From the IMG/VR virus record IMGVR_UViG_3300027834_000009, positions 1 to 50,014 of that record: a DNA stretch of 50,014 nucleotides. The stretch is one strand, 5' to 3'. Positions 8,849 to 22,258 of this stretch are shown here, one piece after another (positions within the stretch are counted from its first letter, which is position 1; every line of letters starts with the position of its first letter). This stretch comes from a virus (taxonomy: Duplodnaviria; Caudoviricetes). The position numbers and the translations under genes were made by a program. A model generated the notes under the pieces. That model was not told where the DNA came from. It saw nothing but the letters and a program-made list of their open reading frames with translations, and did not search any database.

Positions 8849-9019
8849 TTACACAATACCTAAGTCTTTCCTGATTAATTCAATCCTCATAGCATTGTAC
8901 TGCCATTTATCCAAACATTTAGGCGGGTTCTTATCATTCTTACCCCACTGAAAGCCACAACGATTGCAAGTGTGACTACCATCGCTCTCGGTTCTGGATT
9001 TACAGTTTTGAGTGGTCAC
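8849..9019 (-). CDS. Small Cys-containing hypothetical protein (56 aa, not in ORF track)
   Basis: GTG start after GAGGA. Manual translation: MTTQNCKSRTESDGSHTCNRCGFQWGKNDKNPPKCLDKWQYNAMRIELIRKDLGIV. Confidence 0.55.
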   Translation of the reverse strand: MTTQNCKSRTESDGSHTCNRCGFQWGKNDKNPPKCLDKWQYNAMRIELIRKDLGIV

Positions 9020-9455
9020 GGGCTAAGTCCTCTAGTTCCTTAAGCCATTCCGGTTCAATAAGTCTACCAGCATCAATGTAGCTTTGGATCTCGTCCAGTA
9101 GTGACATGCAACGTTTATGGACGTGCTGCTTGCGAGATGGTAATTGTGATGGAGTAGGTATAGGTGATGGTACTCCGGGTGGTGCGGGTGGTGGTCCTGG
9201 TAATATCACTGGGTGACTTGGTATATCGATCATTAAGATGTTCGGCGCGTGCTGCCATTTGTCTAAGTCCTTATTAAATATTACTTCTAGATTACATGTC
9301 TCACAATACTGTGGTGGCACTGGTGGTGTTGGTGCTACGGCAATATGGTCATATGTAAACGGGCCGTCGTTACTGTGGGTCCACATTTTAGCATCAGGCC
9401 CACGAGCGTAATCGTTTATTAGCTCGATTGGTTCGTTACATTGTTTACATCTCAT
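9000..9455 (-). CDS. Hypothetical protein with two CxxC...W-x-H units and Pro-rich linkers
   Basis: CKQC...WTH and CETC...WQH internal repeat, plus a PPPAPPG tract. Confidence 0.65.
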   Translation of the reverse strand: MRCKQCNEPIELINDYARGPDAKMWTHSNDGPFTYDHIAVAPTPPVPPQYCETCNLEVIFNKDLDKWQHAPNILMIDIPSHPVILPGPPPAPPGVPSPIPTPSQLPSRKQHVHKRCMSLLDEIQSYIDAGRLIEPEWLKELEDLARDHSKL

Positions 9456-9627
9456 CGCTTTGGTCCTCTAATATTTTAATAATGTTACACGTGAGAAGCG
9501 CGAAAACTAGCGCCCATATATCTATAAAATTTACTATTAGTTGCGTTTCGGTCATTTCTGGATTGCTAAACCTGAGGTAAAAGATGGCAATCACCATGAC
9601 TATCAATGACAAGATGTTAAGTTTCAT
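9445..9627 (-). CDS. Small membrane protein
   Basis: 60 aa with two hydrophobic segments, coupled to both neighbours. Confidence 0.6.
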   Translation of the reverse strand: MKLNILSLIVMVIAIFYLRFSNPEMTETQLIVNFIDIWALVFALLTCNIIKILEDQSDEM

Positions 9628-9966
9628 TTAATCTGAACCCCCAGTAAATGCAGCACCCCACGCCGCAGCGAGTGTAATTGCAATGGGTAGCTTGCTAAAC
9701 CCTGATGAATTACTTGTATTAGTTATTGATTCATACTTAGGCTTTGTAGTTGACTTAACGCTTTCATACTTACGAAATTTGGATTTGGCCATTTTGTTAC
9801 GCGGTTTACTCTTTGCCATCACAAATAATTTATTATTGATTATTTCATCATCAAGAGACTCTATGACTTCATATTCCTCAGCAGTCATTTGAAATTTAGA
9901 GCCGCTAAATGTGGTAATTATATAACTATTTATATGGGGATGTAGTCGACGGTTTGAACTAGACAT
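9628..9966 (-). CDS. Hypothetical protein (may extend to 9995 if a 1-bp deletion is present)
   Basis: ORF track. An upstream ATG at 9995 follows the promoter and a GAGCAAACAAA leader but is out of frame by one base. Confidence 0.55.
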   Translation of the reverse strand: MSSSNRRLHPHINSYIITTFSGSKFQMTAEEYEVIESLDDEIINNKLFVMAKSKPRNKMAKSKFRKYESVKSTTKPKYESITNTSNSSGFSKLPIAITLAAAWGAAFTGGSD

Positions 9967-10026
9967 GGTATACCCTCGTCATCACACTTGATCATTTTGT
10001 TTGCTCCATTAGGCTAAGTTATGGTC

Positions 10027-10055
10027 ATCATAGTGCAACAGTTGCGCAGTGTCAA
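10027..10055 (-). promoter_or_regulatory. Repeated promoter/operator element, copy 6
   Basis: TTGACA-CTGCGCAACTGTTGCAC(17)-TATGAT. Confidence 0.85.
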
Positions 10056-10630
10056 CGCTTAATTACTCCAAATTTTTCAAAGATTATTTCAAAGTCAAGC
10101 TCACGGTCGCCCATGTAGGTGATCATAGAGCCCTTGGGTGCTCCACGCTGTGGCATGCCGTCAGCTTGGATGTAGTGTGACCTTGGCGAGCAGAAGCAAG
10201 TCGGAAATGCTAGTAATTTTTGAGCCCATGCCTCACTGGTATTGGCGAACGTGATGCACATCAGCTGCTTGACGTTGAAATTAGCATATTGATTGATAGC
10301 ATAATCAATGTATTCCTCGTTACTTGGTTTGTCAGTGTCGATACAGTGGCCACGGTCTTTGCACTTCTTTTTTACACATTTAGGCTTGCAGGCAAGCTCG
10401 CCACGGCTGAATGGGTGATTCATCCACACGTTGCCGTACCATTGCTGCTTTAAGCCGTTATCCTCCTTGGTGAATATGTTAGTGGCCCCTACAAATAAAT
10501 TGGCCACAGGGTGCGAGAATGGGTCAAGATCAATAGACCCCATTAATTCACGAGCAGCACTAGTAAACTTTGGGTCGGTATAGTACTCGACATTACCGCT
10601 ATCTTGATTGATGAGTTGCGAGTTATTCAT
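10052..10630 (-). CDS. Phage Dam-like DNA N6-adenine methyltransferase
   Basis: EYYTDP, IDLDPFS and DNGLKQQW.GNVWMNHPF follow the phage N6A-MTase layout. Motif IV reads NHPF rather than NPPY/F. ATG at 10630 chosen as start. Confidence 0.75.
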   Translation of the reverse strand: MNNSQLINQDSGNVEYYTDPKFTSAARELMGSIDLDPFSHPVANLFVGATNIFTKEDNGLKQQWYGNVWMNHPFSRGELACKPKCVKKKCKDRGHCIDTDKPSNEEYIDYAINQYANFNVKQLMCITFANTSEAWAQKLLAFPTCFCSPRSHYIQADGMPQRGAPKGSMITYMGDRELDFEIIFEKFGVIKR

Positions 10631-10788
10631 TGGCCGCAAATCTTGAGACCATCCAATAGTTAGCCATACCTACCCCCTTAGTGCTTGACGTACTGCCAGT
10701 ACTGATGGTTTGACGGCATATTTAGCTCGTTCCGAGATTAATAGTGCTTGCTTTTCAGCTCGCTCGATTGCTTTTTTGTTACTCTTGC

Positions 10789-11010
10789 TCATGGTCTCAC
10801 CCTTGTTAATGCTAATTGATATAGTTCGTGGTCATAGTCAAAGCTGCCCAGTCTGATGACGTGCGAGAACTCCACCCCTCTGGTGTGCTCGTGCCTGTTA
10901 ATGTAGACAAACTGTTCTCGGTCATCAGGGTGGATATACATTGATTGCCACTGCCTAAAGGTGTACCGGTGATCAGCTAATACCGCTATTTTCATCGTCA
11001 TATTTTTCAC
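10789..11010 (-). CDS. Hypothetical protein
   Basis: ORF track; co-oriented with neighbours and overlapping them. Confidence 0.55.
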   Translation of the reverse strand: MKNMTMKIAVLADHRYTFRQWQSMYIHPDDREQFVYINRHEHTRGVEFSHVIRLGSFDYDHELYQLALTRVRP

Positions 11011-11287
11011 CTAGTTTATAAAGTTTTTGACCGAAAGTGGTTAGCGGATAGTTAGCCCTATTACCATTTTGGTAAAATTCAACGGCTAATGCTCGCAGTT
11101 CTTCCAGCTCAGAGGTGTCCACCTCGTCGCTATTCGCTATTGCCTGCTTAAAATCTGCTATATTCTCAAAGTCATTCTCACTAGAGCAATGTGGGCAATT
11201 TTCATTCCACCACTCAAGCCCAATGGTTGCAGTCTGTAGTGCAACTCGCAAATTAAAAACCATAGATTTTAGTACTGTCTCTCTCAT
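10973..11287 (-). CDS. Hypothetical protein
   Basis: ORF track; ATGA-type overlap with the upstream gene. Confidence 0.6.
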   Translation of the reverse strand: MRETVLKSMVFNLRVALQTATIGLEWWNENCPHCSSENDFENIADFKQAIANSDEVDTSELEELRALAVEFYQNGNRANYPLTTFGQKLYKLGEKYDDENSGIS

Positions 11288-11556
11288 CGCTGTCTACCTT
11301 TAAAGTTGTTTTGAAATTTAACCCAGCTTTTCTGCTTGAGCTTTTTCTCGTCAGTGGTTGCGGTCGCTACTTCTAAGCTCTCTAACTCATTAATACTGGC
11401 GAACTTTACGCGACCATTGATAGCAACGCTAAGTTGTTTCACAGCCCCCACAACTTCGATACCCGCCTCTCTTAATTTAACAATAGTTGCGTTTATCTCT
11501 GCTGCTCGAGACTTACCCACGCACCGAGGTGCCATCGTGATTTTAATTTTAGTCAT
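11284..11556 (-). CDS. Hypothetical protein
   Basis: ORF track; TAATG coupling and a GGGG RBS. Confidence 0.6.
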   Translation of the reverse strand: MTKIKITMAPRCVGKSRAAEINATIVKLREAGIEVVGAVKQLSVAINGRVKFASINELESLEVATATTDEKKLKQKSWVKFQNNFKGRQR

Positions 11557-11795
11557 TAGTGGCCCCTTGGGTGCAGGTCACCGATGATCACTGTGACATT
11601 ATCGAGGAAAATTTTAGTTTGTATTTCGTTACGTTCTTCAGTGAGCATGTGACAAGCGGTTCTAAGTGCAGTTGTAACAAGTGATTCTTGAGTGAGTAGC
11701 ATTCCACACAAAAATTCATATTGCAGGTCACTAAGTGGATCACCAGCATTACCCATTGTTGCCGCAAGTTTGGCTAGCATTTCATTAGCGTTCAT
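11556..11795 (-). CDS. Hypothetical protein
   Basis: ORF track; coupled to both neighbours. Confidence 0.6.
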   Translation of the reverse strand: MNANEMLAKLAATMGNAGDPLSDLQYEFLCGMLLTQESLVTTALRTACHMLTEERNEIQTKIFLDNVTVIIGDLHPRGH

Positions 11796-12042
11796 TAGCG
11801 TTAGCCTTACAAATTTCAGCGATAGTTTCTAGTCGGTCTTGCTTTCGACGTTCCTTAGATTTGTCTCTAGTTGCCTTTCGACGTTCCTGTATGCGTCGGT
11901 CTTCGCTCTGACTCATTACCCATTTCAGCTCTGCTGCGGCTGCTGTATCACCAAGTTTTGCGGCCTCCCTCAGTTCCTTAATTAGGTCTATATCAGCCAT
12001 TAAAGACTCACCAAAAATACTATTCATGTTAAAGTTTTCCAT
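11785..12042 (-). CDS. Hypothetical protein with a basic DRR/ERR-rich C-terminus
   Basis: The track start at 12090 is the TTG of a -35 box. The first ATG downstream of the promoter is at 12042. Confidence 0.6.
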   Translation of the reverse strand: MENFNMNSIFGESLMADIDLIKELREAAKLGDTAAAAELKWVMSQSEDRRIQERRKATRDKSKERRKQDRLETIAEICKANANER

Positions 12043-12061
12043 TTCTCGTTGATTTAACCCG

Positions 12062-12090
12062 ACTATAGTGCAATGGTTGCGTAGTGTCAA
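12062..12090 (-). promoter_or_regulatory. Repeated promoter/operator element, copy 5
   Basis: TTGACA-CTACGCAACCATTGCAC(17)-TATAGT. Confidence 0.85.
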
Positions 12091-12366
12091 CTAATAAAAC
12101 ACAGCTGGTTGTAAATAATCGTAAGCCAGGCTCGGGTCAATTTTTTTGACAAAAGGTCTCATATCATCAAGTAATTTCTTAGTGCATCGATACCGATGGT
12201 CACCGACGATACTTTTACCAATGGTTCGGTAGATAGTTCTAAGCTCATCATCATTATTAATGACTATTCGAGTGCGAAACCGCTGCAAGAGCTCGTCTAG
12301 TTGTGGCTCGCATAATGCAATATGGTCTAGATAGTCTGATGATGCTTTAATTTTAATAGGGTACAT
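12091..12366 (-). CDS. Hypothetical protein
   Basis: ORF track; the stop codon directly abuts the -35 box of promoter copy 5. Confidence 0.6.
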   Translation of the reverse strand: MYPIKIKASSDYLDHIALCEPQLDELLQRFRTRIVINNDDELRTIYRTIGKSIVGDHRYRCTKKLLDDMRPFVKKIDPSLAYDYLQPAVFY

Positions 12367-12393
12367 TTTAATTAATTCTTGTTATTTGAAGGA

Positions 12394-12416
12394 AAGGCCC
12401 CTAATTAGGAGGCCTT
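12394..12416. terminator. Intergenic hairpin, possible terminator
   Basis: AAGGCC-CCTAATTAGG-A-GGCCTT inverted repeat downstream of the 12435-12689 gene. The U-tail is weak. Confidence 0.45.
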
Positions 12417-12434
12417 CTTAAGTGTTATTAATAT

Positions 12435-12689
12435 TTACCTGTAAAAAGTCAGTGATGCAAAGTCACCAGACGGACGACAACCCCGATCGCCCTCACAAAT
12501 TTTGCAATTTTTACCGTCTTTATCACAAAATTTACCTTTCGGTTCTTTTGGTCTACCCTCATTGATAACATTAAATACGCCTGGAATGGTGCTAGATACG
12601 CTAATGCTAGTGTTCACACTTGCCTGAACGGGCATGATAAACACCATGAACAAAGCGATAATAATCAAAGTGGCTAATTTTCTAAACAT
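12435..12689 (-). CDS. Small exported protein with a signal peptide and a 4-Cys C-terminal motif
   Basis: MFRK, then a hydrophobic core, then a VQA cleavage-like site. The C-terminus carries FCDKDGKNCKICEGDRGC. Strong AGGAG RBS. Confidence 0.7.
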   Translation of the reverse strand: MFRKLATLIIIALFMVFIMPVQASVNTSISVSSTIPGVFNVINEGRPKEPKGKFCDKDGKNCKICEGDRGCRPSGDFASLTFYR

Positions 12690-12743
12690 AGTTTTCTCCT
12701 AATTTGCCGTCAGAATCCGGTGACGACTTCCGGTTGTTGTTTG

Positions 12744-13163
12744 TTAATATCTCGTACTCTGTAGAATCTTTGCAATAGCACAGAGTGTTTGATGTGCTGC
12801 CTCTTCCGTTTTAAAGAAATTTCCTTGATTGAAATGATTCATGTCTACAGGATCGTCATCGAAAGGCATATCCATTACATCATGGCTGCTAAATATCCAA
12901 TATTTATCACCAATTTTAGGTTTTTCGCTCATTGGCGCTATACACTCAATACCGTTGATAGTGTATGTTTTAGACTCTATTGAGTAGTTTTCTGCTGCAT
13001 CGTTAAATGTGAAATATTCAAAACTATTGTCCGAACTAGTTACCTTTTCACCCCTGCCGAATGCCTTCATAAATTCAATGCACTCAGGATTGAATCGTGG
13101 AAAGATTACTTTCACTTCATCACCATCAAGTACGCTTAGTACTCTTGCTTGTTCTCTGTTCAT
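12744..13163 (-). CDS. Hypothetical phage protein
   Basis: The C-terminal half (P...PKIGDKYW...GNFFKTEEAA) resembles 20080-20529. It starts 3 nt after junction repeat copy 1. Confidence 0.7.
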   Translation of the reverse strand: MNREQARVLSVLDGDEVKVIFPRFNPECIEFMKAFGRGEKVTSSDNSFEYFTFNDAAENYSIESKTYTINGIECIAPMSEKPKIGDKYWIFSSHDVMDMPFDDDPVDMNHFNQGNFFKTEEAAHQTLCAIAKILQSTRY

Positions 13164-13166
13164 TTT

Positions 13167-13502
13167 TTATTCTTTATGGTTGGTTAGTAGTTTTTCGAAA
13201 GAATTAACCACTTGTTTCATTAGCTCGAATTGTATTTTAGCCTCAAACCTTATTGAGTTGCACACCTCACTAGTAGTCGCTGTTTTATATTCGTCCCGAA
13301 CTGCTTTGAATTTATGAAAGAGTAAAAGCGCATCTTCCTTGGGTATCGACTCAGCTAGCTTAGCCTCGAGATACTCCTCCCTTTCCATCTGTACGCTGAT
13401 ATATATTATTTGCGCTAAAATGTCTTTTTTAGAGGCCCTTAGCTTTTTCTCTAGCTCGTTGATTCTGGCACTGTTGTCTGTAAATGTGTCATGTTCACTC
13501 AT
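13167..13502 (-). CDS. Coiled-coil hypothetical protein ending LTNHKE; partial paralogue of 15309-15734
   Basis: Shares RINEL, AKLAESIPK and EKLL(T/S)NHKE blocks with 15309-15734. Confidence 0.7.
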   Translation of the reverse strand: MSEHDTFTDNSARINELEKKLRASKKDILAQIIYISVQMEREEYLEAKLAESIPKEDALLLFHKFKAVRDEYKTATTSEVCNSIRFEAKIQFELMKQVVNSFEKLLTNHKE

Positions 13503-13657
13503 AATTTAAAATCCCTACAGTTGGTGCACTGACCTTTCCTGTTCAGTTCGTGGTCGTGATATTCATTTTCACAATTAACACAATGTTTTAGTTCGTAACG
13601 ACCTTTGAATGATGCACGTCTACGAGAGCGTAGGTAGTTTGGCTTAAGGTTACTCAC
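13499..13657 (-). CDS. Small putative zinc-finger protein (52 aa, not in ORF track)
   Basis: Manual translation from GTG: MSNLKPNYLRSRRRASFKGRYELKHCVNCENEYHDHELNRKGQCTNCRDFKL. ATGA overlap with the next gene. Confidence 0.55.
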   Translation of the reverse strand: MSNLKPNYLRSRRRASFKGRYELKHCVNCENEYHDHELNRKGQCTNCRDFKL

Positions 13658-13811
13658 TGGTCCAGCCCTCGACCTCCTCCCAGTTGATCATATTTAATAT
13701 CTGGTCATTAGCTGGTATGCTATCACCTACAATTACAAAGCTGTCATCAGCTTTGATTAGAACTAAATCATGAGGGTTAGAGTTGTTTGAATAAGTTACC
13801 ATTGTAGTCAT
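13650..13811 (-). CDS. Small hypothetical protein (53 aa, not in ORF track)
   Basis: First ATG after promoter copy 4. Manual translation: MTTMVTYSNNSNPHDLVLIKADDSFVIVGDSIPANDQILNMINWEEVEGWTSE. Confidence 0.55.
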   Translation of the reverse strand: MTTMVTYSNNSNPHDLVLIKADDSFVIVGDSIPANDQILNMINWEEVEGWTSE

Positions 13812-13843
13812 TTTTGTTTGCTCGTTGCGTTTAAGTTGAATCC

Positions 13844-13872
13844 ACTATAGTGCAACTGCTGCATACTGTCAA
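13844..13872 (-). promoter_or_regulatory. Repeated promoter/operator element, copy 4
   Basis: TTGACA-GTATGCAGCAGTTGCAC(17)-TATAGT. Confidence 0.85.
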
Positions 13873-14075
13873 CAACTAATTTCTAGCCTGTTCACATCAG
13901 ATTCTAACTCTTTAATTCTATCGTGCAGTTCCTCGATGACTTCTATTAGATCACTAGTTCCTATCGGTTCCAACTCACTACACACATGACATTTACAACA
14001 CGTATAGAATCCCTCAATCTTTTCATCTAGGCCGACGGGTTGCTCATTTTCACAATGTGCACATGTAGTTTTCAT
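13869..14075 (-). CDS. Small zinc-ribbon plus coiled-coil protein
   Basis: CAHC...CCKC followed by a heptad C-terminus. GGAG RBS. Its TGA stop lies within the TTGACA of promoter copy 4. Confidence 0.65.
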   Translation of the reverse strand: MKTTCAHCENEQPVGLDEKIEGFYTCCKCHVCSELEPIGTSDLIEVIEELHDRIKELESDVNRLEISC

Positions 14076-14227
14076 AGTGTTATTATCTCCAAGGTTTCAA
14101 GAGCTCCACGGTGGAACTCTGTGGCTATTCTCGCGTCATAGCATGACTGAATGTAGCCCATGATATTCACGAGGTTTAGTCGCTGCTCGACGCACCTGAT
14201 TGCCCATTCTTGCCCGTGTTCATACAT
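14072..14227 (-). CDS. Small hypothetical protein (51 aa, not in ORF track)
   Basis: GAGGT RBS. Manual translation: MYEHGQEWAIRCVEQRLNLVNIMGYIQSCYDARIATEFHRGALETLEIITL. ATGA overlap with the next gene. Confidence 0.45.
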   Translation of the reverse strand: MYEHGQEWAIRCVEQRLNLVNIMGYIQSCYDARIATEFHRGALETLEIITL

Positions 14228-14370
14228 CTTGATACTACCTCTAGTTTGTAAAGAATATTCACCAACAATATATTAACTAATACCTCATGATACTCAAGAT
14301 TGGGGCTTGTAATGGCGCTACCCAATGCTACCAGGTTAGCAATCAAATATAGTATTATGGTGTTTTTCAT
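14176..14370 (-). CDS. Small membrane protein following junction copy 2
   Basis: ATG 3 nt after the repeat; hydrophobic N-terminal half. Confidence 0.6.
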   Translation of the reverse strand: MKNTIILYLIANLVALGSAITSPNLEYHEVLVNILLVNILYKLEVVSRCMNTGKNGQSGASSSD

Positions 14371-14390
14371 GACCTATTCCTTATGGTTGG

Positions 14391-14559
14391 TTAGAGTTGT
14401 TTGTGTATCGACGTTCTGATAGTTTCAACACACTCAAACCAATGATTCCTTTCGCCCCCTAGCGGCAAGCTTTTAGCGTAAATCATTACTTTAGAACAGG
14501 CGTTATCAATAGAATCAAATGCTTCTTTTTTTTAAGTTTTCTAATTCTTTGTTACTCAT
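14391..14559 (-). pseudogene. Cassette gene frameshifted in an A8 tract (or a sequencing error)
   Basis: ATG 5 nt after repeat copy 3. Removing one base from the T8 run at 14526-14533 gives a 55-aa ORF (MSNKELENLKKEAFDSIDNACSK...IHKQL) ending exactly at the first TAA of repeat copy 2. Confidence 0.65.
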
Positions 14560-14598
14560 ATTATTTATTCCTTATGGTTAAACTAAAAGTATTGGTCG

Positions 14599-14847
14599 TT
14601 AATGATTGGAAACATAGCCAGGGTCTTTGCAGTCGCCGTACCAACGTAATAACCAACAGTCTTTGGTTTTACATTTCCACATTTTCCCGACATACACCCC
14701 TGACGGCATAGAGTTTGAATATTCATATAATTTAGAAAGAGACTGTATACTCATTAGTGCGTGGTTATCGTCTATTTCGATTTCGGAAAGTTTAGGTTGG
14801 TCCCAGTAAGCGCCTAACGGGTCTGTCATTTCAGGTACTGCTTTCAT
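14599..14847 (-). CDS. Hypothetical cassette protein
   Basis: ATG 3 nt after repeat copy 4. Trp-rich (YSNSMPSGVYVGKMWK...WLLRWYG). Confidence 0.7.
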   Translation of the reverse strand: MKAVPEMTDPLGAYWDQPKLSEIEIDDNHALMSIQSLSKLYEYSNSMPSGVYVGKMWKCKTKDCWLLRWYGDCKDPGYVSNH

Positions 14848-14867
14848 TATCTATTCTTTATGGTTGG

Positions 14868-15083
14868 CTAGCATCTCAATTTCACATCGTTATTAGGTGA
14901 GTGAGTTTGATTTAAAACGTTAGGCTTAGCAGTTGTTTGCTTTTCCCTCAATGGATCAATTTCATGTACAAAAACAAGATTAAGATGATTTTTTACAATC
15001 TCAACTTGCTCCTGTGTTAATTCTTTTTTACCACTTATTTCAAAATAACCCTGTAACCAAAAACAAAAATCTATAGTGTTCAT
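14868..15083 (-). CDS. Hypothetical cassette protein (FCFWLQGYFE type)
   Basis: ATG 3 nt after repeat copy 5; the stop is the first stop codon of copy 4. Confidence 0.75.
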   Translation of the reverse strand: MNTIDFCFWLQGYFEISGKKELTQEQVEIVKNHLNLVFVHEIDPLREKQTTAKPNVLNQTHSPNNDVKLRC

Positions 15084-15086
15084 AAT

Positions 15087-15305
15087 CTATTCCTTATGGT
15101 TGGTTAAAATATCCTGAGCAACTAACACAGGGCAATCTAACGAGTGTTTGAAATTTTCCTTTTTTTGGCTCCGAGGCTTCAATCCATCGTCACACCAATT
15201 ACAAATGTAACCATCATACGGGTACATTGCATCGTCCCACATAATACAATTATGAATCATGGCACCAGCAATCATGATAACGTCCTCTTTTTTGAAATCA
15301 CTCAT
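15087..15305 (-). CDS. Hypothetical cassette protein with a CxxC...HxxxC motif, ending LTNHKE
   Basis: Bounded by repeat copies 6 and 5. Confidence 0.75.
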   Translation of the reverse strand: MSDFKKEDVIMIAGAMIHNCIMWDDAMYPYDGYICNWCDDGLKPRSQKKENFKHSLDCPVLVAQDILTNHKE

Positions 15306-15308
15306 AAT

Positions 15309-15734
15309 CTATTCCTTATGGTTGGATAGTAGCTTTTCTAGGTCGCATAAAACACCTGTCAAAACCGCGTTATACCCCTCGTCAAGGCAATCTTTCATTA
15401 GCTCTGCGTAAACGTTTTGGAGTATCTCAATATCCTTCTTAGGTATTGACTCAGCTAGCTTGGCATTCCTTCCTCCTAAAGACTTTTCGCATGATTTAAG
15501 CAACGCTTGTTTATGATCTAAGTCAATTTCAAGAAGACCGTAGTCGAGCTTTAAACTCTCTAATTGCTTCTCTAGCTCACTAACCCTTTTCTCGAACTGG
15601 TTAGACGTGGCCTCCCATAAAGTGGCTGAACCTTTATACGCGAACAAATCCTTATCTAGCTCGTTGATTCTTTCTTTGTCAGTCATGCGTCTAGTTATCT
15701 CGCCACCGCCGTTTAAGCTTAAATTATCATTCAT
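15309..15734 (-). CDS. Coiled-coil cassette protein ending LSNHKE
   Basis: Bounded by repeat copies 7 and 6. Confidence 0.75.
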   Translation of the reverse strand: MNDNLSLNGGGEITRRMTDKERINELDKDLFAYKGSATLWEATSNQFEKRVSELEKQLESLKLDYGLLEIDLDHKQALLKSCEKSLGGRNAKLAESIPKKDIEILQNVYAELMKDCLDEGYNAVLTGVLCDLEKLLSNHKE

Positions 15735-15736
15735 AT

Positions 15737-15976
15737 CTATTCCTTATGGCTGGATAGACAAGCCTCTCGCCTATCATGTAAATTATTTAGTTTTTCAGTA
15801 CCCATCTTTAGCCGATACTCATAATCTCTTTTTAGGTCAGGATAGCAACAGCTAAAATCTAAAGTACATTCATCATTTCTATGCTCTGATTTTCCATTTA
15901 TCCATAATAGAGTTTGCTCTATGCAATTATCGATATAACCAAGTTGTTTATATGCTGGTGCTAACTTGTAACCCAT
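15737..15976 (-). CDS. Hypothetical cassette protein ending LSSHKE
   Basis: Bounded by repeat copies 8 and 7. Contains W..G.S.H..DEC..DFSCC.P.L. Confidence 0.75.
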   Translation of the reverse strand: MGYKLAPAYKQLGYIDNCIEQTLLWINGKSEHRNDECTLDFSCCYPDLKRDYEYRLKMGTEKLNNLHDRREACLSSHKE

Positions 15977-15997
15977 CTATCTATTCCTTATGGTTGG

Positions 15998-16263
15998 TTA
16001 ATCTAATCCTGTATCTGGCTCCGCATCCCTAACCGCTTTAGCCATTTTCTCAAACGTTTTAGCTAAGGACTCTCGACGGCTAGGTGATTTAGGTAGCCAA
16101 AAAGTAACGGCGCTTCTGTCGTCGTCTTCCGGCGGGTGATGCAACCTTTCAGACGAATGTAATACCACTTGTACCGCAGGGTAAATAATCCCCGTATTAC
16201 TTTTTTATTGAAACTTATAACCTCTTCCGTTATTTCTTGGCTGTATACATTGATTCTCATCAT
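15998..16263 (-). pseudogene. Cassette gene frameshifted in an A6 tract (or a sequencing error)
   Basis: Adding one base to the T6 run at 16201-16206 gives an 88-aa ORF (MMRINVYSQEITEEVISFNKKSNTGIIYPAVQVVLHSSERLHHPPEDDDRSAVTFWLPK...DTGLD) ending exactly at the first TAA of repeat copy 8. Confidence 0.7.
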
Positions 16264-16401
16264 TTATTCCTTATCGTTGGTTAAAACCGCGCCACAATCG
16301 GCACAGCACATTTTTTTAGTAAAGCCTTGTCGGTGCTTACCTTTGCATTCGTCAGCCCACGAGACAAGCTTAGGCTTTGTTTTTAGGTGTTTGCATTGCA
16401 T
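16264..16401 (-). CDS. Small Cys-rich protein ending LTNDKE
   Basis: ATG at 16401 after GAAGG. MQCKH...CCADCGAVLTNDKE terminates in repeat copy 9. Confidence 0.6.
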   Translation of the reverse strand: MQCKHLKTKPKLVSWADECKGKHRQGFTKKMCCADCGAVLTNDKE

Positions 16402-16522
16402 AGTAGTGTTTACCTTCGAACCAAGGAGCATTCCAGTCTCTGGCTTGAACAATTCTAAGCCTCGTCAGGATATCGATCTTTTGTACCATCTGCTCGAGTT
16501 GTTGTTTGTATGAGCTATTCAT
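16370..16522 (-). CDS. Small hypothetical protein (50 aa, not in ORF track)
   Basis: Manual translation: MNSSYKQQLEQMVQKIDILTRLRIVQARDWNAPWFEGKHYYAMQTPKNKA. Fills the gap between neighbours. Confidence 0.4.
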   Translation of the reverse strand: MNSSYKQQLEQMVQKIDILTRLRIVQARDWNAPWFEGKHYYAMQTPKNKA

Positions 16523-16799
16523 AAGCTACAGCCGTTAAGTTAATACCGGTGATACTACTAGAATCATCAAAAGTTGTGCCAAAGCAGCGACGACCAATGA
16601 TATGTAATCTACGCTCGCGACTCAGTTGCTGTAGCAAGTCAAACTTAATTTTGTTGTGAATACTAGTCACACCCTTGGTGCTGGTTCGGGTAAAGTATCG
16701 AACCTGATAGGAGCCATTTTTTTTAATGGCAGCCAATATGATACGACGATACTTAACATCCATGCTATTTTTCACAGGTCCCTCACCCATGTAATGCAA
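16515..16799 (-). CDS. Hypothetical protein
   Basis: ORF track; start uncertain. Confidence 0.55.
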   Translation of the reverse strand: MHYMGEGPVKNSMDVKYRRIILAAIKKNGSYQVRYFTRTSTKGVTSIHNKIKFDLLQQLSRERRLHIIGRRCFGTTFDDSSSITGINLTAVAYE

Positions 16800-17107
16800 T
16801 CAGAAGCCATAGCAGGACCTGACCCGTTAGTATTCCAGTAAAACATGTTGCGCTTGACGAAGTAGCTAGCGAGAGTGACTTTACCCTTGTAGATTACAAA
16901 GCATTCTTGCGATCCGATGGTCATTACACCTTTTACCCAGTATTCCATCTTAAGCCATCCGGTTTGGGATGCTAGGATCTGCATTTCTTTAAGCTGGTAT
17001 AATTGGTCGATAGTGCTTTGAAATACCTTAGCCTCTCGATGCTGCTCAGGCTTCAAATTTTCTATGATTTTTTCAAGTACAGTAATATTATCTTCTACTA
17101 ATCGCAT
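16772..17107 (-). CDS. Hypothetical protein
   Basis: First gene after promoter copy 3; AGGGG RBS. Confidence 0.7.
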   Translation of the reverse strand: MRLVEDNITVLEKIIENLKPEQHREAKVFQSTIDQLYQLKEMQILASQTGWLKMEYWVKGVMTIGSQECFVIYKGKVTLASYFVKRNMFYWNTNGSGPAMASDCITWVRDL

Positions 17108-17140
17108 TGTGGTTTCCCCTACTTCTTAAATGGTGTAGTC

Positions 17141-17169
17141 ATTATAGTGCAACTGTTGCATACTGTCAA
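17141..17169 (-). promoter_or_regulatory. Repeated promoter/operator element, copy 3 (perfect sigma70 consensus)
   Basis: TTGACA-GTATGCAACAGTTGCAC(17)-TATAAT. Confidence 0.92.
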
Positions 17170-17172
17170 TAA

Positions 17173-18138
17173 CTACTTTTTAAATACTGGTAATTCTTCT
17201 AGTTCTAAATATTTGTCTGTAAGTTTTTCGACTGTCGTGTAATTTCTATAGAGCGTTCGAGGCAGCTTTGAGTATTCACCGTTAATTTTATTGCCTCCTA
17301 CGTGTCCGTATTCCTTTTCAAGCATGTCTGGAAATTCAAAAATACCTGGGTCATTATCCATGATGGTAAGTAGCTTTTTCTCGCACTTTTTGAAGCACCA
17401 AGCGCAGTTACCTTGGTAATCTTCAATACCTAAATCGAACGTCATCGACTTCCAATAATCCCTGATCATTTGTTGTGTCATAGGCACATGGTCTGCCAAA
17501 GGATAGAATTTATTTTGCCAATTTTTATTACGATTGAGCCGCTTGGGTTCGTCACCACGGATACCGATAGCTGTGTGGTAGGTGCCTTTTTCCCACCCGA
17601 TGACCTTCTGTACGTAATGGTGAATAGGGTTCTCTTTAAGCTCTCGCGAGCAGTGTGGGTATGCTTTATTTGGCACCCCATATTTTTTGACCACATCAAG
17701 GTATGGGCCATCAAACCTACTACTCCTTGTAGCGCTCTCGTAATCAACCAGCTCTGATGTGGAAGCAATCCGACCAGCCCAGACACACGCCTCAACCCAT
17801 GCTGTATTGAGTTTGAAGTATTGGTCCACCTCGTCCATAAATTCTAAAGTCTCGTCCATCTCTTGCCCAGTATTAGCAAATACGAATCGAACGTCATAGA
17901 TTGCGGAGTCATAGTATTGCTTTGCCCAACCAGCCATGAAGCAAGAACTACGACCACCACTGACAGTGATGAGTATTTTTTCTCGCGGTAGTTCGTCGAC
18001 ACTAATACCAGTTATACTACAAGCTTGGGATGCAATCTCTAACGTTTCACTTATGGGCTTGTCACTACAGTCCTCGTAATGTCGAACCCTATAGACAAAA
18101 TTGCCCATACTCGTGATTTCGTAATTTCCGACTAGCAT
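17173..18138 (-). CDS. PAPS-reductase-like (adenine nucleotide alpha-hydrolase/PP-loop) protein
   Basis: VSGGRSS PP-loop, FANTGQE, CSRELK, IGIRGDE and GNCAWCFKK. Confidence 0.82.
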   Translation of the reverse strand: MLVGNYEITSMGNFVYRVRHYEDCSDKPISETLEIASQACSITGISVDELPREKILITVSGGRSSCFMAGWAKQYYDSAIYDVRFVFANTGQEMDETLEFMDEVDQYFKLNTAWVEACVWAGRIASTSELVDYESATRSSRFDGPYLDVVKKYGVPNKAYPHCSRELKENPIHHYVQKVIGWEKGTYHTAIGIRGDEPKRLNRNKNWQNKFYPLADHVPMTQQMIRDYWKSMTFDLGIEDYQGNCAWCFKKCEKKLLTIMDNDPGIFEFPDMLEKEYGHVGGNKINGEYSKLPRTLYRNYTTVEKLTDKYLELEELPVFKK

Positions 18139-18359
18139 TGCTTAGCCTCTCGATAAATTTGCTTGATGGCCTCTATGGTGTGGTCTCTCGCGTCGTAAGT
18201 TAGGTCAACCCAGTACTCGCCAGTGTCGTCGCCACCGTCACATATCATTAGTTCCTCAGTGGCCTGCATCTTGGCTGCTACTCTTTCAATCTTATCAGCT
18301 TCAGCGGTAGTTCCTTGGATGTTTGCTAAGCCCTTACTGATTACTAATTTCATTTTCAT
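18132..18359 (-). CDS. Hypothetical protein
   Basis: First gene after promoter copy 2. Confidence 0.65.
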   Translation of the reverse strand: MKMKLVISKGLANIQGTTAEADKIERVAAKMQATEELMICDGGDDTGEYWVDLTYDARDHTIEAIKQIYREAKQC

Positions 18360-18385
18360 TTGCTCTTTGCGTTTAAGTTGTACCT

Positions 18386-18414
18386 ATTGTAGTGCAATGG
18401 TTGCATACTGTCAA
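18386..18414 (-). promoter_or_regulatory. Repeated promoter/operator element, copy 2
   Basis: TTGACA-GTATGCAACCATTGCAC(17)-TACAAT. Confidence 0.88.
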
Positions 18415-18416
18415 GT

Positions 18417-18458
18417 AAAAAAAAGCCCTAAATTCATGGGGGCGAATTAGGGGCTTTT
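18417..18458 (-). terminator. Intrinsic terminator directly upstream of promoter copy 2
   Basis: Imperfect inverted repeat AAAAGCCCTAAATTC / GAATTAGGGGCTTTT, with a T8 tail on the minus strand. Confidence 0.75.
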
Positions 18459-18484
18459 CTGGGTTTGCATCATCTCTGCGGGTG

Positions 18485-19042
18485 TCATAATAAACCAAGG
18501 CTTTTACATTTGTCAATAAACAGCTGTTCATGCTGGTTTGGGTCATTAATAAAATAGAACTCCCGCAAGTTATCATCAATAGCAATGGGCGGAATATCAT
18601 CTAGTATTGGCCACGGTCTGCCAGGTGGCATGAAGTTATCACGCTCGTACTTTAGACAGCATAGGTCCGCATAAGTGATCCAATTCTTACCCGTCTTACG
18701 GGAGACCTTGAAGCGGTTGTAAATTTTACCATCGATATTGACAGTCATTTGCTCAAGGTCTCTAAGGTATGGCTTGATAGGGCTAGCGATATCACCGAGA
18801 TATGCCTCATGAGCATCATGAAGTATCGCCCATCGCTGCATATTCTCATCATAGCCCATCATTTGGATGAGCCCTAGAACCATCACAGAATGTAATGCAA
18901 CACTGCAATTAGCGCTTGCGTGGCCATTAAATCGACGAATGCGAGCAAGACTAAAGGCGATGTCCTCAATATACACATCCTCCCAATTAATGTTTTTAAA
19001 TGAGAACTCATGCCCATGATGAGTGAGTATCCAATGTGCCAT
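18485..19042 (-). CDS. HD-domain phosphohydrolase (YfdR/YfbR-like 5'-deoxynucleotidase)
   Basis: IEDIAFSLARIRRFNGH, SVALHS, LHDAHEAYLGDIASPIK and AD...L..E. ATG at 19042 chosen because it abuts the upstream stop. Confidence 0.85.
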   Translation of the reverse strand: MAHWILTHHGHEFSFKNINWEDVYIEDIAFSLARIRRFNGHASANCSVALHSVMVLGLIQMMGYDENMQRWAILHDAHEAYLGDIASPIKPYLRDLEQMTVNIDGKIYNRFKVSRKTGKNWITYADLCCLKYERDNFMPPGRPWPILDDIPPIAIDDNLREFYFINDPNQHEQLFIDKCKSLGLL

Positions 19043-19043
19043 T

Positions 19044-19352
19044 TCAAAAATGCTCTTCGTTGTCAAATTCTGCAATGGTGCTAAGAGCATCTGCAAGCTG
19101 CTTTTGAGTGTGTGCCAATTGTCGCTCGAGGTGTGCTGAATAGAAGCCGTGACGTTGGTCAAGCCTGTGCAAATATTCTGGGTTATCCCCCCTCATTGCA
19201 TTATTGTACAAGTCGGCTATCACATCCCAATCTTGATTACTATGCCCACCGGGATATCCTCGGTCTATTGAATGTTGCTTTATTGACTCGCCCGTTTGGA
19301 ACTCTCGGCGCATGCCGGTGACTTGTATTGATACTGATATGTTATTGCTCAT
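19044..19352 (-). CDS. Hypothetical protein
   Basis: ATG at 19352 after GAGG; coiled-coil C-terminus. Confidence 0.6.
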   Translation of the reverse strand: MSNNISVSIQVTGMRREFQTGESIKQHSIDRGYPGGHSNQDWDVIADLYNNAMRGDNPEYLHRLDQRHGFYSAHLERQLAHTQKQLADALSTIAEFDNEEHF

Positions 19353-19674
19353 CTTGTAGCCTCGCTTGATTTTTAAAAGTGTGTATATCCTTGCTGGCAA
19401 TAATTACCCGGCCATCGGGCATGAAGACCTCAAATTGTACATAGCGGTCCTGAGTACTGAGTACTTTATAATACTTGCATTGGTCACTCATATAAGGGTT
19501 TTTAGGACATTCCACCCATGTTTGACCAGCTAATGGTATTTGATGCTCGTCAATATATTCGTTTATTGCTACAGCAATCACACCAATACCAATTACTATC
19601 CACATAAGCTTGTCTAACAGTTTACCTACAGGGATTATGTGTATGCACTCAGTTGTAGGGGGTTCGTTACTCAT
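19342..19674 (-). CDS. Single-pass membrane protein
   Basis: LMWIVIGIGVIAVAI segment; GAGG RBS. Confidence 0.65.
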   Translation of the reverse strand: MSNEPPTTECIHIIPVGKLLDKLMWIVIGIGVIAVAINEYIDEHQIPLAGQTWVECPKNPYMSDQCKYYKVLSTQDRYVQFEVFMPDGRVIIASKDIHTFKNQARLQDEQ

Positions 19675-20086
19675 TATCCACCTCGTAGCTATAGGTTATG
19701 TCAGTGACTAGTCCCCTACCAGCGTGAAGCCATTTAGCATGATAGTTATCATCAGCCACGCAATACCGAATGATTTTAACCGAATTGTGCTTACAGGACT
19801 TAACCAGCGTATTGTGTAAACTAGTGGCTACCCCTACCATGCGATACTCGGGTTTGACATAAATTATAGTGACTACAGCCTCATCATGTACACAATTAGT
19901 GTCTATCATAAAACTGATTAAACCGATATGTTTACCACCATGTTTAGCAATGATGACGTGCTCATCAAAGTCAACTTCCAGGCTTTTTAGCTGTGCATGG
20001 TGACCAGCGTCTATCAGTTCGCGCCAAGCCTGTTTGTAAATAGAGGGTGTCTTCTTGGTTGAGTGGTAGGTGCACTTTATTAGCAT
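19667..20086 (-). CDS. GNAT-family acetyltransferase
   Basis: Motif A IYVKPEYRMVGVATSL and motif B V..DNYHA..L....G. Confidence 0.78.
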   Translation of the reverse strand: MLIKCTYHSTKKTPSIYKQAWRELIDAGHHAQLKSLEVDFDEHVIIAKHGGKHIGLISFMIDTNCVHDEAVVTIIYVKPEYRMVGVATSLHNTLVKSCKHNSVKIIRYCVADDNYHAKWLHAGRGLVTDITYSYEVDNE

Positions 20087-20529
20087 TTTAATATCTCCAT
20101 TAGGACACTTGCAGCCGCTAGAGCTTCTTTCTGCGTGGCAAATAATGAACCCCTATCAAGTTTCATTCCATTGGTGAAATTATAAGAATACTCAAAGCTA
20201 TAAACCCCGCCATCTTGAGAAAAATCAATACCCCAGACAGCCGTGCCAATTTTAATACTACCGCTAAGTGGTATAGGCATTTCTAAACCCTCATCAGGTG
20301 GGTTGATCAGTCTGGTTCTTATGATTATCGAATAGTTCATATTATCAGACCATTCAGGATTGGAAGTTAGAAAACGATCCCCTTGCGCGACCCAATAAGT
20401 TACTAAGTCATAAGTGCCGTTAGACCATTCAGTCGCGATATCACGATGCTTAATAAGTCCTTGTAAGTTAATTTTACGAAGTTCACAGTCTGATAGTTTT
20501 AATAAATGTTTAGTCGTTGATTTGTTCAT
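20080..20529 (-). CDS. Hypothetical phage protein; C-terminal half resembles 12744-13163
   Basis: P.PL....KIGTAVW...GSLFATQKEA. ATG at 20529 after GAGGA. Confidence 0.65.
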   Translation of the reverse strand: MNKSTTKHLLKLSDCELRKINLQGLIKHRDIATEWSNGTYDLVTYWVAQGDRFLTSNPEWSDNMNYSIIIRTRLINPPDEGLEMPIPLSGSIKIGTAVWGIDFSQDGGVYSFEYSYNFTNGMKLDRGSLFATQKEALAAASVLMEILKC

Positions 20530-21025
20530 TGTAATGGTCCTCATAGTTGCCAACAATTAAATAGGCTGCTTTGGTGACTAATTGTTGCCTATCTAGTTTT
20601 TTAATTTCACCGAGGCCGATTGAGATTTGTGTCTCTAGCTCGGCGTTGAACAGGTCTTTTCCGTCTTTGCAATGTACCCTGCCTTGCACTTTTTTTAGCC
20701 GAGTAACCTTATTTTTATTGATACCTGTATCGCGTTTGATATCACTAGCAATTCGGTCGAGTCCAGCCTCAATATGCTCAACCACGTTATTAATATTAAA
20801 GGAGGTAAGCTGCGCCACAGTGTTAATAAATAAGCGGCTAACCAATTGCTCGGCTTCTTTTTCGATGGGCGTATGTAGTGCTTCATACGCTTGTCTGATG
20901 GCAATGAATCGATTACTATCGCCGCCTGAGTCGGGATGATGTTTCTTAGCCAACTTGCGGTAAGCCCTTTTGATCTCAGCCTCATCAGCGTTGTGGTTAA
21001 CACCAAGTGTATCGTGCGGATTCAT
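20510..21025 (-). CDS. J-domain (DnaJ-like) protein
   Basis: NPHDTLGV...EIKRAYRKLAKKHHPD.GG....F..I..AYEAL, with an intact HPD motif. Confidence 0.9.
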   Translation of the reverse strand: MNPHDTLGVNHNADEAEIKRAYRKLAKKHHPDSGGDSNRFIAIRQAYEALHTPIEKEAEQLVSRLFINTVAQLTSFNINNVVEHIEAGLDRIASDIKRDTGINKNKVTRLKKVQGRVHCKDGKDLFNAELETQISIGLGEIKKLDRQQLVTKAAYLIVGNYEDHYNEQIND

Positions 21026-21414
21026 ATTTTAAACTCCATACCAGGGGGTACGTCACAGTGACGAAGGTTAGCAAATTTACTCATATCTCTGACAATGTCT
21101 ATCAGCTTATTGAACTCATCCCCAGGCACATCATGGCTGCGAATATAAGATTTACCATGATAGCGGCCAATGGTGATAATAGTATTAGATGCTTGAGGAT
21201 GTTGGTAATAGTCCACATCAATAGTAGTAGCCTTTTTAATATGCTCCTCGGCGGCCTTAGATAGTGATAAAGCTTTTCGAGCTACAGTGTTAGCGTGGTT
21301 GATATCACTTTGTAATTGAGATTCCATAGCCATTAGATTTTTAATCTGCATGTGGAGGTATCCGCCTAACGTTACGACGCTGAGAATAAGTAGTATAAGT
21401 ATTACCTCAATCAT
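21022..21414 (-). CDS. Membrane-anchored coiled-coil protein
   Basis: Hydrophobic N-terminus; coupled to both neighbours. Confidence 0.65.
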   Translation of the reverse strand: MIEVILILLILSVVTLGGYLHMQIKNLMAMESQLQSDINHANTVARKALSLSKAAEEHIKKATTIDVDYYQHPQASNTIITIGRYHGKSYIRSHDVPGDEFNKLIDIVRDMSKFANLRHCDVPPGMEFKI

Positions 21415-21695
21415 TATTTATCCCCATCGACTTTGATTCTATCGGTCAAGCAAAGAGCGTAGAATGTGGTGTACTTAGTCTGCAAGTCGATAAGCAAATT
21501 ATTGATAACGTTGTAGTGCGGAGTGTGGATGTCATGTTCATCACGAGCCGCCTTAACTTGGTTAATAATTTGAGCCGCGTTAATAGCTACACTATTTTGA
21601 TAAACATGCTCAGCTACTTTAATATCACGCGGTGACATCTTACCGATTGATGAATTCCTAACAATGCTAGTTAGTTCTTGGCTGAAGTTTTTCAT
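21414..21695 (-). CDS. Hypothetical protein
   Basis: ORF track; GAGGA RBS. Confidence 0.6.
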   Translation of the reverse strand: MKNFSQELTSIVRNSSIGKMSPRDIKVAEHVYQNSVAINAAQIINQVKAARDEHDIHTPHYNVINNLLIDLQTKYTTFYALCLTDRIKVDGDK

Positions 21696-22200
21696 TGAAT
21701 AAGTCCTCTAATTGTTTGTTTTTATGAATAGTTGCGGCATGAGAGAATGCCAAATGTGCAGAATGTGCACTACAAGGGGTAAAGCAACTCCTAATACACT
21801 CTACTGCACGAAATGCCTGTACCGGAATTGTGCAGTAATTTGACTTTTGTAAATATGTCAGGTGTATATAGTGTTCTCTCAGCTGGCTATATTTACAATC
21901 ACCATTAATATAATCTCGCAGGGCTTGTACGGCCTGCTCGGGTTCCTTACTTTCTGGCAATTCGTTATTAATAATGTCAAGTGGCACACATTCAATTAGT
22001 GCTAAAAGTAAAGGTGCATAATCCTTGTAGTCACATGTCCTAAGCGCCCATGCTGCATCGTTGATCCCGTTAGATTCCATGATGGTTAGTATGTGGATTG
22101 GATTATTAATTCCGTAGTCAGGACCTAAATACTCAGTGAGTATCCGATATCCTCTCTTACATGGTTTAAATGATGAAATTTCAGCTAGTGTCGTATACAT
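21667..22200 (-). CDS. Hypothetical phage protein
   Basis: First gene after promoter copy 1; AGGGG RBS. N-terminus TTL.EI....PC..GY..L...LG...SNGI.DA.WALR. Confidence 0.7.
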   Translation of the reverse strand: MYTTLAEISSFKPCKRGYRILTEYLGPDYGINNPIHILTIMESNGINDAAWALRTCDYKDYAPLLLALIECVPLDIINNELPESKEPEQAVQALRDYINGDCKYSQLREHYIHLTYLQKSNYCTIPVQAFRAVECIRSCFTPCSAHSAHLAFSHAATIHKNKQLEDLFNEKLQPRTN

Positions 22201-22229
22201 TTAGTTTCCCCTATTTAGTAGACAAATCG

Positions 22230-22258
22230 ATTGTAGTGCAACGATTGCACACTGTCAA
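22230..22258 (-). promoter_or_regulatory. Repeated promoter/operator element, copy 1
   Basis: TTGACA-GTGTGCAATCGTTGCAC(17)-TACAAT. Confidence 0.88.

Follow-up and report, generated by a model that had tools for sequence, protein, structure and literature searches.

A repeated linker between small early genes

The 50,014-bp stretch analyzed here (hereafter the window) is the whole of IMG/VR virus record IMGVR_UViG_3300027834_000009, which originates from a marine metagenome, and our subject is a short repeat, hereafter the linker, found at the junctions of small genes in its early region. PHROG matches to tail sheath, HK97-type capsid, portal, terminase, tape measure, and baseplate proteins identify a tailed phage, and further matches are to a primase, a helicase, a gp2.5-like single-strand binding/annealing protein, and an exonuclease. 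From 9000 to 22704 the genes run leftward, in a region subdivided by six copies of a promoter-like repeat, and all linker copies lie within this leftward early region.

A search of the window at up to 3 mismatches returned eight matches to the 21-mer YTAACCAACCATAAGGAATAR, each with 0–2 mismatches and all on the minus strand (13167, 14374, 14851, 15087, 15309, 15737, 15981, and 16264), while 0 of 100 dinucleotide-preserving shuffles of the window contained any match. An earlier note on this DNA had counted nine copies; the remaining one, at 14565, proved to be partial, failing the 21-mer at ≤3 mismatches but retaining the 3′ 15 nt (AACCATAAGGAATAA) exactly, and a repeat finder recovered all nine, again on the minus strand. 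Start-to-start distances between successive copies are 1207, 191, 286, 236, 222, 428, 244, and 283 bp. From 14374 to 16264, eight copies thus bound seven intervals of 191–428 bp with one gene apiece, as the earlier note had described, and the 1207-bp interval holds several genes and no linker. Over the whole window and both strands, the linker core has no plus-strand copy and no copy beyond 13167–16284. The repeat observation is confirmed.

The consensus carries stop codons at positions 2–4, 12–14, and 19–21, in three different frames; this property, also claimed previously, belongs to the consensus but not to every copy, the first stop being missing (CTATCC) from those at 15329 and 15757. The invariant core ATAAGGAATAR contains a Shine-Dalgarno (SD)-like TAAGGA and follows an A/C-rich lead, either AACC or AACCAACC. 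AACC and AATAR are conserved around the SD-like element, as judged against the commonly used anti-SD sequence. From the copy at 16264 down to that at 13167, an ATG begins 0, 4, 2, 3, 3, 3, 5, 3, and 3 nt past the repeat, in every case within the 0–5 nt given in the earlier note. TAAGGA followed by ATG within 3–9 nt matches 10 times in the 50 kb, 8 of these in the array (at 7 junctions), and other genes of the window use different ribosome sites, e.g., AGGAG.

An array of ten small cassette genes, delineated from the open reading frame (ORF) list and profile matches, occupies 14176–16522 on the minus strand, and its linkers, all on that strand, are numbered from 1 (16264–16284) to 8, with linker 9 in the next transcription unit. 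Gene K (16370–16522) and gene A′ (16264–16401) come first. Linker 1 (TTAACCAACGATAAGGAATAA) is immediately followed by an ATG, and the upstream ORF runs to its last stop with the tail VLTNDKE. Linkers 2 (15981–16001), 5 (15087–15107), and 8 (14374–14394) are exact consensus copies, followed by an ATG after 4, 3, and 3 nt, respectively: gene B (15998–16263) stops at TAA, positions 2–4 of linker 2, gene E (15087–15305) leaves linker 5 with the tail ILTNHKE, and the open frame of gene H (14391–14559) reaches TAA, positions 2–4 of linker 8, which precedes gene I (14176–14370). Gene C (15737–15976) uses the last stop of linker 3 (CTATCCAGCC..., 15737–15757; ATG after 2 nt) and gains the tail CLSSHKE, and gene D (15309–15734) gains LLSNHKE from linker 4 (15309–15329; ATG after 3 nt). 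Linker 6 (CTAGCC..AAAGAATAG, 14851–14871; ATG after 3 nt) ends gene F (14868–15083) at a TAG in positions 2–4. The partial linker 7 (14565–14585) consists only of the 3′ 15 nt (14565–14579), with an ATG after 5 nt and the stop of gene G (14599–14847) 25 nt upstream. Linker 9 (..AAAGAATAA, 13167–13187; ATG after 3 nt) closes a second D-family gene (13167–13502, minus strand), a paralogue of D with the tail LLTNHKE, and serves a 139-aa gene (12744–13163, minus strand; phrog_18768).

Five genes thus read through the linker with the related tails that had been noticed before, three stop at positions 2–4, and one stops 25 nt upstream, so that the upstream stop lies inside the linker at 8 of the 9 window junctions. 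The same 8 of 9 have what appears to be a translational-coupling layout, with stop and start within a few nucleotides and the SD in or near the end of the upstream ORF. Among the three genes assigned to the first stop, F ends there as proposed (14868), whereas the other two had been placed there after a 1-bp correction, which is supported for B and no more than plausible for H. Gene B is split by a 1-nt frame change in an A-run at about 16195–16205, and its pieces match positions 1–25 and 32–87 of the 87-position profile phrog_20753; with each half thus assigned to its part of a single profile, the complete gene B is taken to finish at the first of the stops in linker 2. In gene H, an A8 run (14526–14533) parts a 14-codon ORF from a 46-codon open frame, and a single frameshifted gene is only plausible. 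Both frame changes could be assembly error or slippage. The cassette genes match different PHROGs or none and are mutually unrelated, except for D and the gene before linker 9. Four have a family match, none of known function: B (phrog_20753), F (phrog_28500), G (phrog_24427), and E (Pfam DUF3222, E-value 1.6e-5).

None of the nine linkers has a promoter-like or terminator-like site. A perfect TTGACA-17-TATAAT promoter-like site (12 of 12 positions, at 17169) lies upstream of the array at 17141–17169 on the minus strand, and is the likely transcript start for linkers 1–8; the next copy of the same repeat (13844–13872, minus strand) is the likely start of the linker-9 unit. Since linkers 1–8 fall between these copies and have no promoter or terminator of their own, they probably share one transcript. 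The 29-nt repeat itself, present in six minus-strand copies (22230–22258, 18386–18414, 17141–17169, 13844–13872, 12062–12090, and 10027–10055), consists of TTGACA, a spacer with the palindrome TGCAAC.GTTGCA, and a TATAAT-like hexamer, and five copies extend to 65 nt; seven sites of the region reach 11–12 of 12 promoter positions, all on the minus strand. A single promoter-operator seems to have been reused in front of about six early units, and the operator may serve the regulator-like gene at 22255–22704 (phrog_1373).

The linkers likewise lack the marks of an integron, as the earlier note had stated: 0 of the 60 window ORFs scanned match an integrase family, in a record that may lack part of its genome, and neither single folds nor an RNAalifold consensus revealed an attC-like inverted repeat or hairpin at the linkers. 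Single folds of the nine 91-nt linker regions were no better than shuffles (z-scores −1.66 to +0.92), the consensus over the 35 junctions described below has 0 pairs, and Rfam gave no linker match at E-values up to 1. As to completeness, the record starts at an SSB-like gene (64–933) and stops within baseplate genes (49408–50010), and no tail-fiber or lysis genes were seen in the window, so part of the genome may be missing despite a 99% completeness estimate.

Linker arrays and shared cassettes in other phages

The search across phage and metagenomic contigs that the earlier note had called for showed that at least eight further phage records of IMG/VR contain linker arrays. Scanning IMG/VR for an exact 18-mer gave 7 stretches, five with 2–3 copies, and a broader scan added two multi-copy records. 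Whole-record scans gave 3 copies each in G001, G002, G004, and G005, 2 in G003, 5 in G007, and 6 in G008, all on one strand per record, and a reversed control pattern had 0 matches. Further copies occur in G009, and two in the short metagenome contig L154. The broad viral scan, with a 15-mer plus ATG, returned at least 119 stretches, nearly all single-copy; these were left out of the counts, since scans of the collection come with no expectation for chance matches. Bacterial genomes (185,579 species representatives, 20-base pattern) yielded 10 single matches in scattered taxa and no array, which we read as chance, with no host or prophage lead.

The window capsid protein matched 0 of 5 linker records, and its terminase matched 2 of 5, at 36–38% identity over part of its length; judged by these comparisons, the five carriers are not close relatives of the window phage in virion genes. 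Its closest capsid matches are ≤31% identical, and no mycobacteriophage occurs among the 15 matches listed. The best relatives found share one locus each, a PAPS-reductase-like protein (63%, in a record without linker or capsid match) or the primase (38%).

Neither the array nor the late region, used as DNA queries, had a relative among GenBank phages, and 30 nt taken from around linker 5 matched there in isolated short stretches and in no array. Single linker-like sites were nonetheless seen in cultured phages: the Vibrio phage phi50-12 has one exact 17-nt match, and Vibrio phage YC (MH375644.1; L130:3034-3061) has a single linker-like junction before rIIB, after a terminator-like hairpin. 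These look-alikes are a weak hint of Vibrio-like hosts. IMG/VR record G006 (L026:12690-12712) also has a single junction, with ...NHKE as the end of the upstream ORF and an ATG 2 nt further on.

We aligned 35 junctions from 9 records, taking upstream ends from ORF lists; some are the same cassette in two records, which makes independent counts slightly lower. ATAA.GAATA is invariant over the 35 (consensus TTAACCAACCATAAGGAATAGATGATGA), and an ATG follows the linker by 0–7 nt in 34 of them and by 10 nt in one. Linkers come in flavors by lineage, ATGATG in G004, G005, G007, and G008 and ATT/ATA-ATG in the window. In the ATGATG flavor, the TGA within the double start closes the third frame, such that TAA, TAG, and TGA close one frame each within 14 nt. 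Upstream genes end at the TAR of positions 19–21 at 15 of the 35 junctions (one of them a 15-codon mini-ORF), in the frame of positions 2–4 at 9 (eight at 2–4, one at the TGA within ATGATG), in the frame of positions 12–14 at 7 (five at 12–14, two at a TAA at 6–8), and before the linker at 3, with one junction unclassifiable at a contig end. Because upstream genes stop in all three linker frames, conservation is not at the protein level, as the earlier note had suggested from the window, and the three-frame stops fit a junction that would accept any upstream frame.

This tally bears directly on the idea that the repeat is conserved for the C-terminal peptide it would give to several proteins, L-T/S-N-H-K-E, which might be, for instance, a targeting or degradation tag. 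The -HKE tail on 15 of 35 upstream ORFs and the ending EKLL(T/S)xHKE common to three D-family proteins are what such a tag would produce, but 16 of the 35 upstream ORFs use one of the two remaining frames and reach a stop sooner, another three do not extend into the linker at all, the conserved SSB gene of G005 ends DDIPF at a TAA within the linker, and one G001 linker is fully intergenic. We regard a peptide tag as extremely improbable; the frame tally contradicts it.

The carriers' arrays hold shared cassettes in different orders. With cassettes lettered a to q, G007 reads a-b-c-d-e-f-g, G009 b-h-c-i-j, G005 SSB-k-c-i-f-l, G004 exonuclease-m-n-f-o, and L154 p-n-q, and the arrays of G004, G005, G007, and G009 are single-cassette insertions, deletions, and replacements apart. 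Five cassettes recur with changed neighbors, of which four (c, f, i, and n) were aligned, with identities counted from printed alignments and hence approximate. Cassette f is ~98% identical in G004, G005, and G007 while all six of its flanks are unrelated, and its identity ends at CAACCATAAGG on the left and CCATAAGGAA on the right, both inside the linker. Cassette c (~96% between G005 and G007) has equally sharp edges, and cassette n (~85% between G004 and L154) is flanked on both sides by identical linker cores. For cassette i, G009 and G005 agree at 100% over ~296 columns, next to a cassette c that is ~92% identical in the same pair, and the right-hand break of i lies inside the linker, just past CCATAAGGA. 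Neighboring segments that differ in divergence and switch at the linker are the usual signature of recombination there. Since each adjacency spans only the linker, shorter than a typical read, the neighbor pairs should be real despite possible chimerism. Breakpoints thus coincide with the linker in 4 of 4 aligned cassettes, with unrelated sequence beyond them, and cassettes recur in other orders, both as anticipated by the earlier note, although in linker phages other than the one it described.

An explanation that makes no use of the linker as a recombination substrate would be that it is merely a good, selected translation start, with illegitimate joining occurring anywhere and only gene-boundary joints surviving. 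With no intergenic sequence in these arrays other than the linker, a joint that survives has to lie there, and the homology it offers (15–27 nt) is short. However, identity continues through the linker and breaks off within it, base-exactly, at both edges of four cassettes, neighboring cassettes switch from 100% to ~92% at the linker in one genome pair, the lineage-specific flavors fit homogenization by exchange, and an intact linker would need rebuilding at every random joint. On this evidence, we consider illegitimate joining alone improbable.

Of the window's own cassettes, only E (53% amino acid identity) and K (58%) have homologs in the other arrays, both in that of G008, where alone relatives of E were found. 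In G008, K directly follows E, whereas the window has K upstream of E by four cassettes, a further case of reordering. Compared at the DNA level with G008, the first 45 nt of gene E from the linker core differ at 4 positions and the last 48 nt at 1 position, while the middle is about half identical and gapped, a pattern that either exchange near both linkers or constraint around them would produce. Relics consistent with cassette exchange are found in G008 (L131:2638-3054), in which two cassettes are fused into one 138-aa ORF and the linker TAG reads CAG (...ANNKEQMMST...), and in G004, in which an apparent 3′ end of cassette k, recognized by eye, lies behind cassette o.

Several other features were observed near the arrays. 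A second junction flavor, in which the TAG is replaced (...AAGGAAGGTAACGAGAAATGA), leaves the upstream ORF 3–6 codons longer, with its stop overlapping the next ATG (L131:3765-3800, L131:2405-2440, L132:3770-3805, L115:5955-5990 minus, L046:775-810, and L133:2590-2625 minus); it precedes different genes in G005, G007, G008, and G009, with a degenerate copy in G004. A third junction type, ATGAATAACCTAACACAAGAGCAAG, gives the N-terminus MNNLTQEQ to differing proteins in G004, G005, G007, G008, and G009 (L131:3946-3990, L132:3935-3965, L133:2525-2560 minus, L046:1000-1030 and 1218-1250, and L115:5735-5755 minus); the string also occurs in G010 (L110) and is absent from the window. Between two linkers of G001 lies an ORF judged by eye to be a putative HNH endonuclease (L134:2720-3127, L151:453-860), preceded by a 15-codon mini-ORF ending ...LTNHKE. 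G003 has an ORF (L135:4427-5416) with a DCTASGLQ stretch that may resemble T7-type single-subunit RNA polymerases; if this holds, G003 would be a linker phage of yet another type.

The coiled-coil-like D family, with the motif (A/V/T)(E/G)S(I/V)(P/A)K, also recurs near arrays (window 15309–15734 and 13167–13502; L131:4322-4690; L133:1992-2372; L115:4969-5289; L135:2645-3097). It was seen in G000 (twice), G003, G004, G007, G008, and G009, weakly in G010, and not in G001, G002, or G005. A D-family protein was considered as a common trans factor and rejected, being missing in 3 of the 5 further records searched, two of them complete. As three members end EKLL(T/S)xHKE, the linker may descend from the 3′ end of a D-family gene.

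A probable portable junction and its rival, an RNA operator

We think it probable, from sequence comparison, that the repeat is a portable stop-SD-start junction that also provides short homology for single-gene exchange, and the plug-and-play gene junction proposed in the earlier note is supported, on the strength of the other linker-bearing phages. A linker of 15–27 nt would pack stops for all three frames, the SD-like TAAGGA, and a start codon 0–7 nt further on. Downstream of one strong promoter-like site, eight window linkers would join small early genes that are probably co-transcribed, and ribosomes would stop in the linker and then restart, or load afresh on an unstructured site. Because the same sequence stands at every junction, it offers short homology, and recombination within the linker could move, delete, or replace exactly one gene while leaving its neighbors unharmed. 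The likely agents would be the phages' own annealing and exonuclease systems. The gp2.5-like protein and the exonuclease of the window (PHROG) are of this kind, as are an ERF-like ORF beside the SSB gene of G005 and a YqaJ-like exonuclease of G004, both recognized by eye from ORF lists.

The main rival reading, which could coexist with a linker role, is that the linker is an mRNA operator. Some protein of phage or host, such as a translational repressor or an endoribonuclease, would bind or cleave it and so switch the early genes jointly, the mosaic being a side effect. A specific sequence is kept well beyond the SD-like part, the linker occurs at some of the early genes and nowhere else in the genome, and the same idea has been raised for the start-associated sequences of cluster K mycobacteriophages (PMC3203893). 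Nevertheless, 0 of the 60 window ORFs scanned match a family described as RNA-binding, the recurrent D family is absent from the complete records G001 and G005, and the window has no reverse-complement copy that could supply an antisense RNA. As the carriers' structural genes are unrelated, the factor would also have to be a host protein or a travelling cassette. We hold an operator to be unlikely as the primary role. As a separate observation, the linker-free record that shares the PAPS-reductase-like protein has a 68-aa ORF (L136:14021-14227) with a possible resemblance to the RNA-binding regulator CsrA.

Several considerations weigh against the portable junction. Both of its components, termination and restart of translation at the linker and exchange by homologous recombination rather than selection on gene-boundary joints, are inferences from sequence. 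The linker being the whole intergenic space, any surviving gene-boundary joint falls in it, and illegitimate joining with selection could give much the same picture. A length of 15–27 nt is short for efficient homologous recombination, and the use of annealing proteins is assumed. Binding by some factor would account equally well for the conservation of the A/C-rich lead and of AATAR, which lie outside the SD-like part. Core invariance is partly built in, since the loci were found with the motif. The mosaic evidence comes from other linker-bearing phages and not from the window genome, for which the collections searched held no close relative. Finally, the only sequencing run found, the probable source and available as contigs, shows no linker-to-linker joint and is uninformative either way; no RNA data set was listed.

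Relation to known systems and significance

The closest precedent is the start-associated sequence (SAS) of cluster K mycobacteriophages (consensus GGGATAGGAGCCC; PMC3203893), and an SAS-like 26-bp repeat is described for Citrobacter phage Mordin (PMC4611695). Like the linker, the SAS is a short, asymmetric, multi-copy repeat in one orientation, placed a few nucleotides before mostly ATG starts and confined to non-structural genes of unrelated families, with the upstream stop sometimes inside the repeat. The SAS combines an SD-like core with conserved positions that SD pairing leaves unexplained, and the linker, with AACC and AATAR around TAAGGA, may do likewise. The two differ in sequence, hosts, and phages, and in length (15–21 nt for the window linker versus 13). 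The window linker has three-frame stops and none of the associated inverted repeats (ESAS), and it is common to phages with unrelated structural genes. The linker also marks the edges of single-gene exchange, which the available parts of PMC3203893 do not report for the SAS.

The promoter-early stem-loops (PeSLs) of T4-type phages (PMC2839356 and PMC4122927) offer a second comparison. There too, the variable regions contain small, dispensable genes without a known function, set between repeated short motifs, and where related phages differ by an insertion, deletion, or replacement, the repeat forms its limits, as it does for the linker in the other records. A PeSL combines a sigma-70-like promoter with a terminator hairpin and acts on transcription, whereas the linker has neither, sits inside an operon at the level of translation, and is carried by phages that are not T4-type.

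An integron resembles the array in being a promoterless series of single genes behind one promoter, bounded by a repeat and variable in content and order, but the linker array comes without an integrase or attC-like hairpin, and its repeat is the ribosome site itself. In lambdoid phages, short conserved sequences at gene borders have been proposed as points of homologous exchange between modules; here, as many as nine successive copies of one and the same sequence are present, and it appears to serve as a translation start. The linker thus belongs to neither the SAS nor the PeSLs, and is no integron. What is new is an apparently translation-level linker with three-frame stops, common to unrelated phages, with comparative evidence of single-gene exchange. 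A literature search with a 12-nt motif string returned unrelated primers only and no occurrence in a gene-junction context, and a search of the literature on conserved phage junction sequences found nothing relevant, a match to 'boundary sequences' concerning genome termini.

Since phages with unrelated structural genes have the linker in common, it would give a pool of small accessory genes one adaptor that all of these phages can use. A broader proposal, which is conceivable but toward which we lean slightly less than we lean against it, is that several unrelated marine phage lineages share one accessory-gene adaptor of 15–27 nt, a recombinase-free counterpart of the integron. Any small gene set between two linkers would then be expressed whatever the array, annealing proteins would carry it singly from one co-infecting phage to another, and the linker would be maintained as a community-wide interface and not as a trait of one lineage, with the two further junction types acting likewise.

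No part of a phage genome varies more or is understood less than its small early genes of unknown function, which are thought to include many genes for host takeover and anti-defense. Their movement between phages one gene at a time has so far mostly been ascribed to occasional illegitimate joining. In the arrays described here, exchanged genes begin and end, base for base, at a short sequence that is also their ribosome site and that is used by phages with unrelated virion genes. If the proposed mechanism is true, the motif would allow accessory-gene arrays to be found in metagenomes, polycistronic constructs could be built with the linker as a compact junction of natural origin that works with an upstream gene in any frame, and phages would have a concrete, testable rule for the exchange of single genes.

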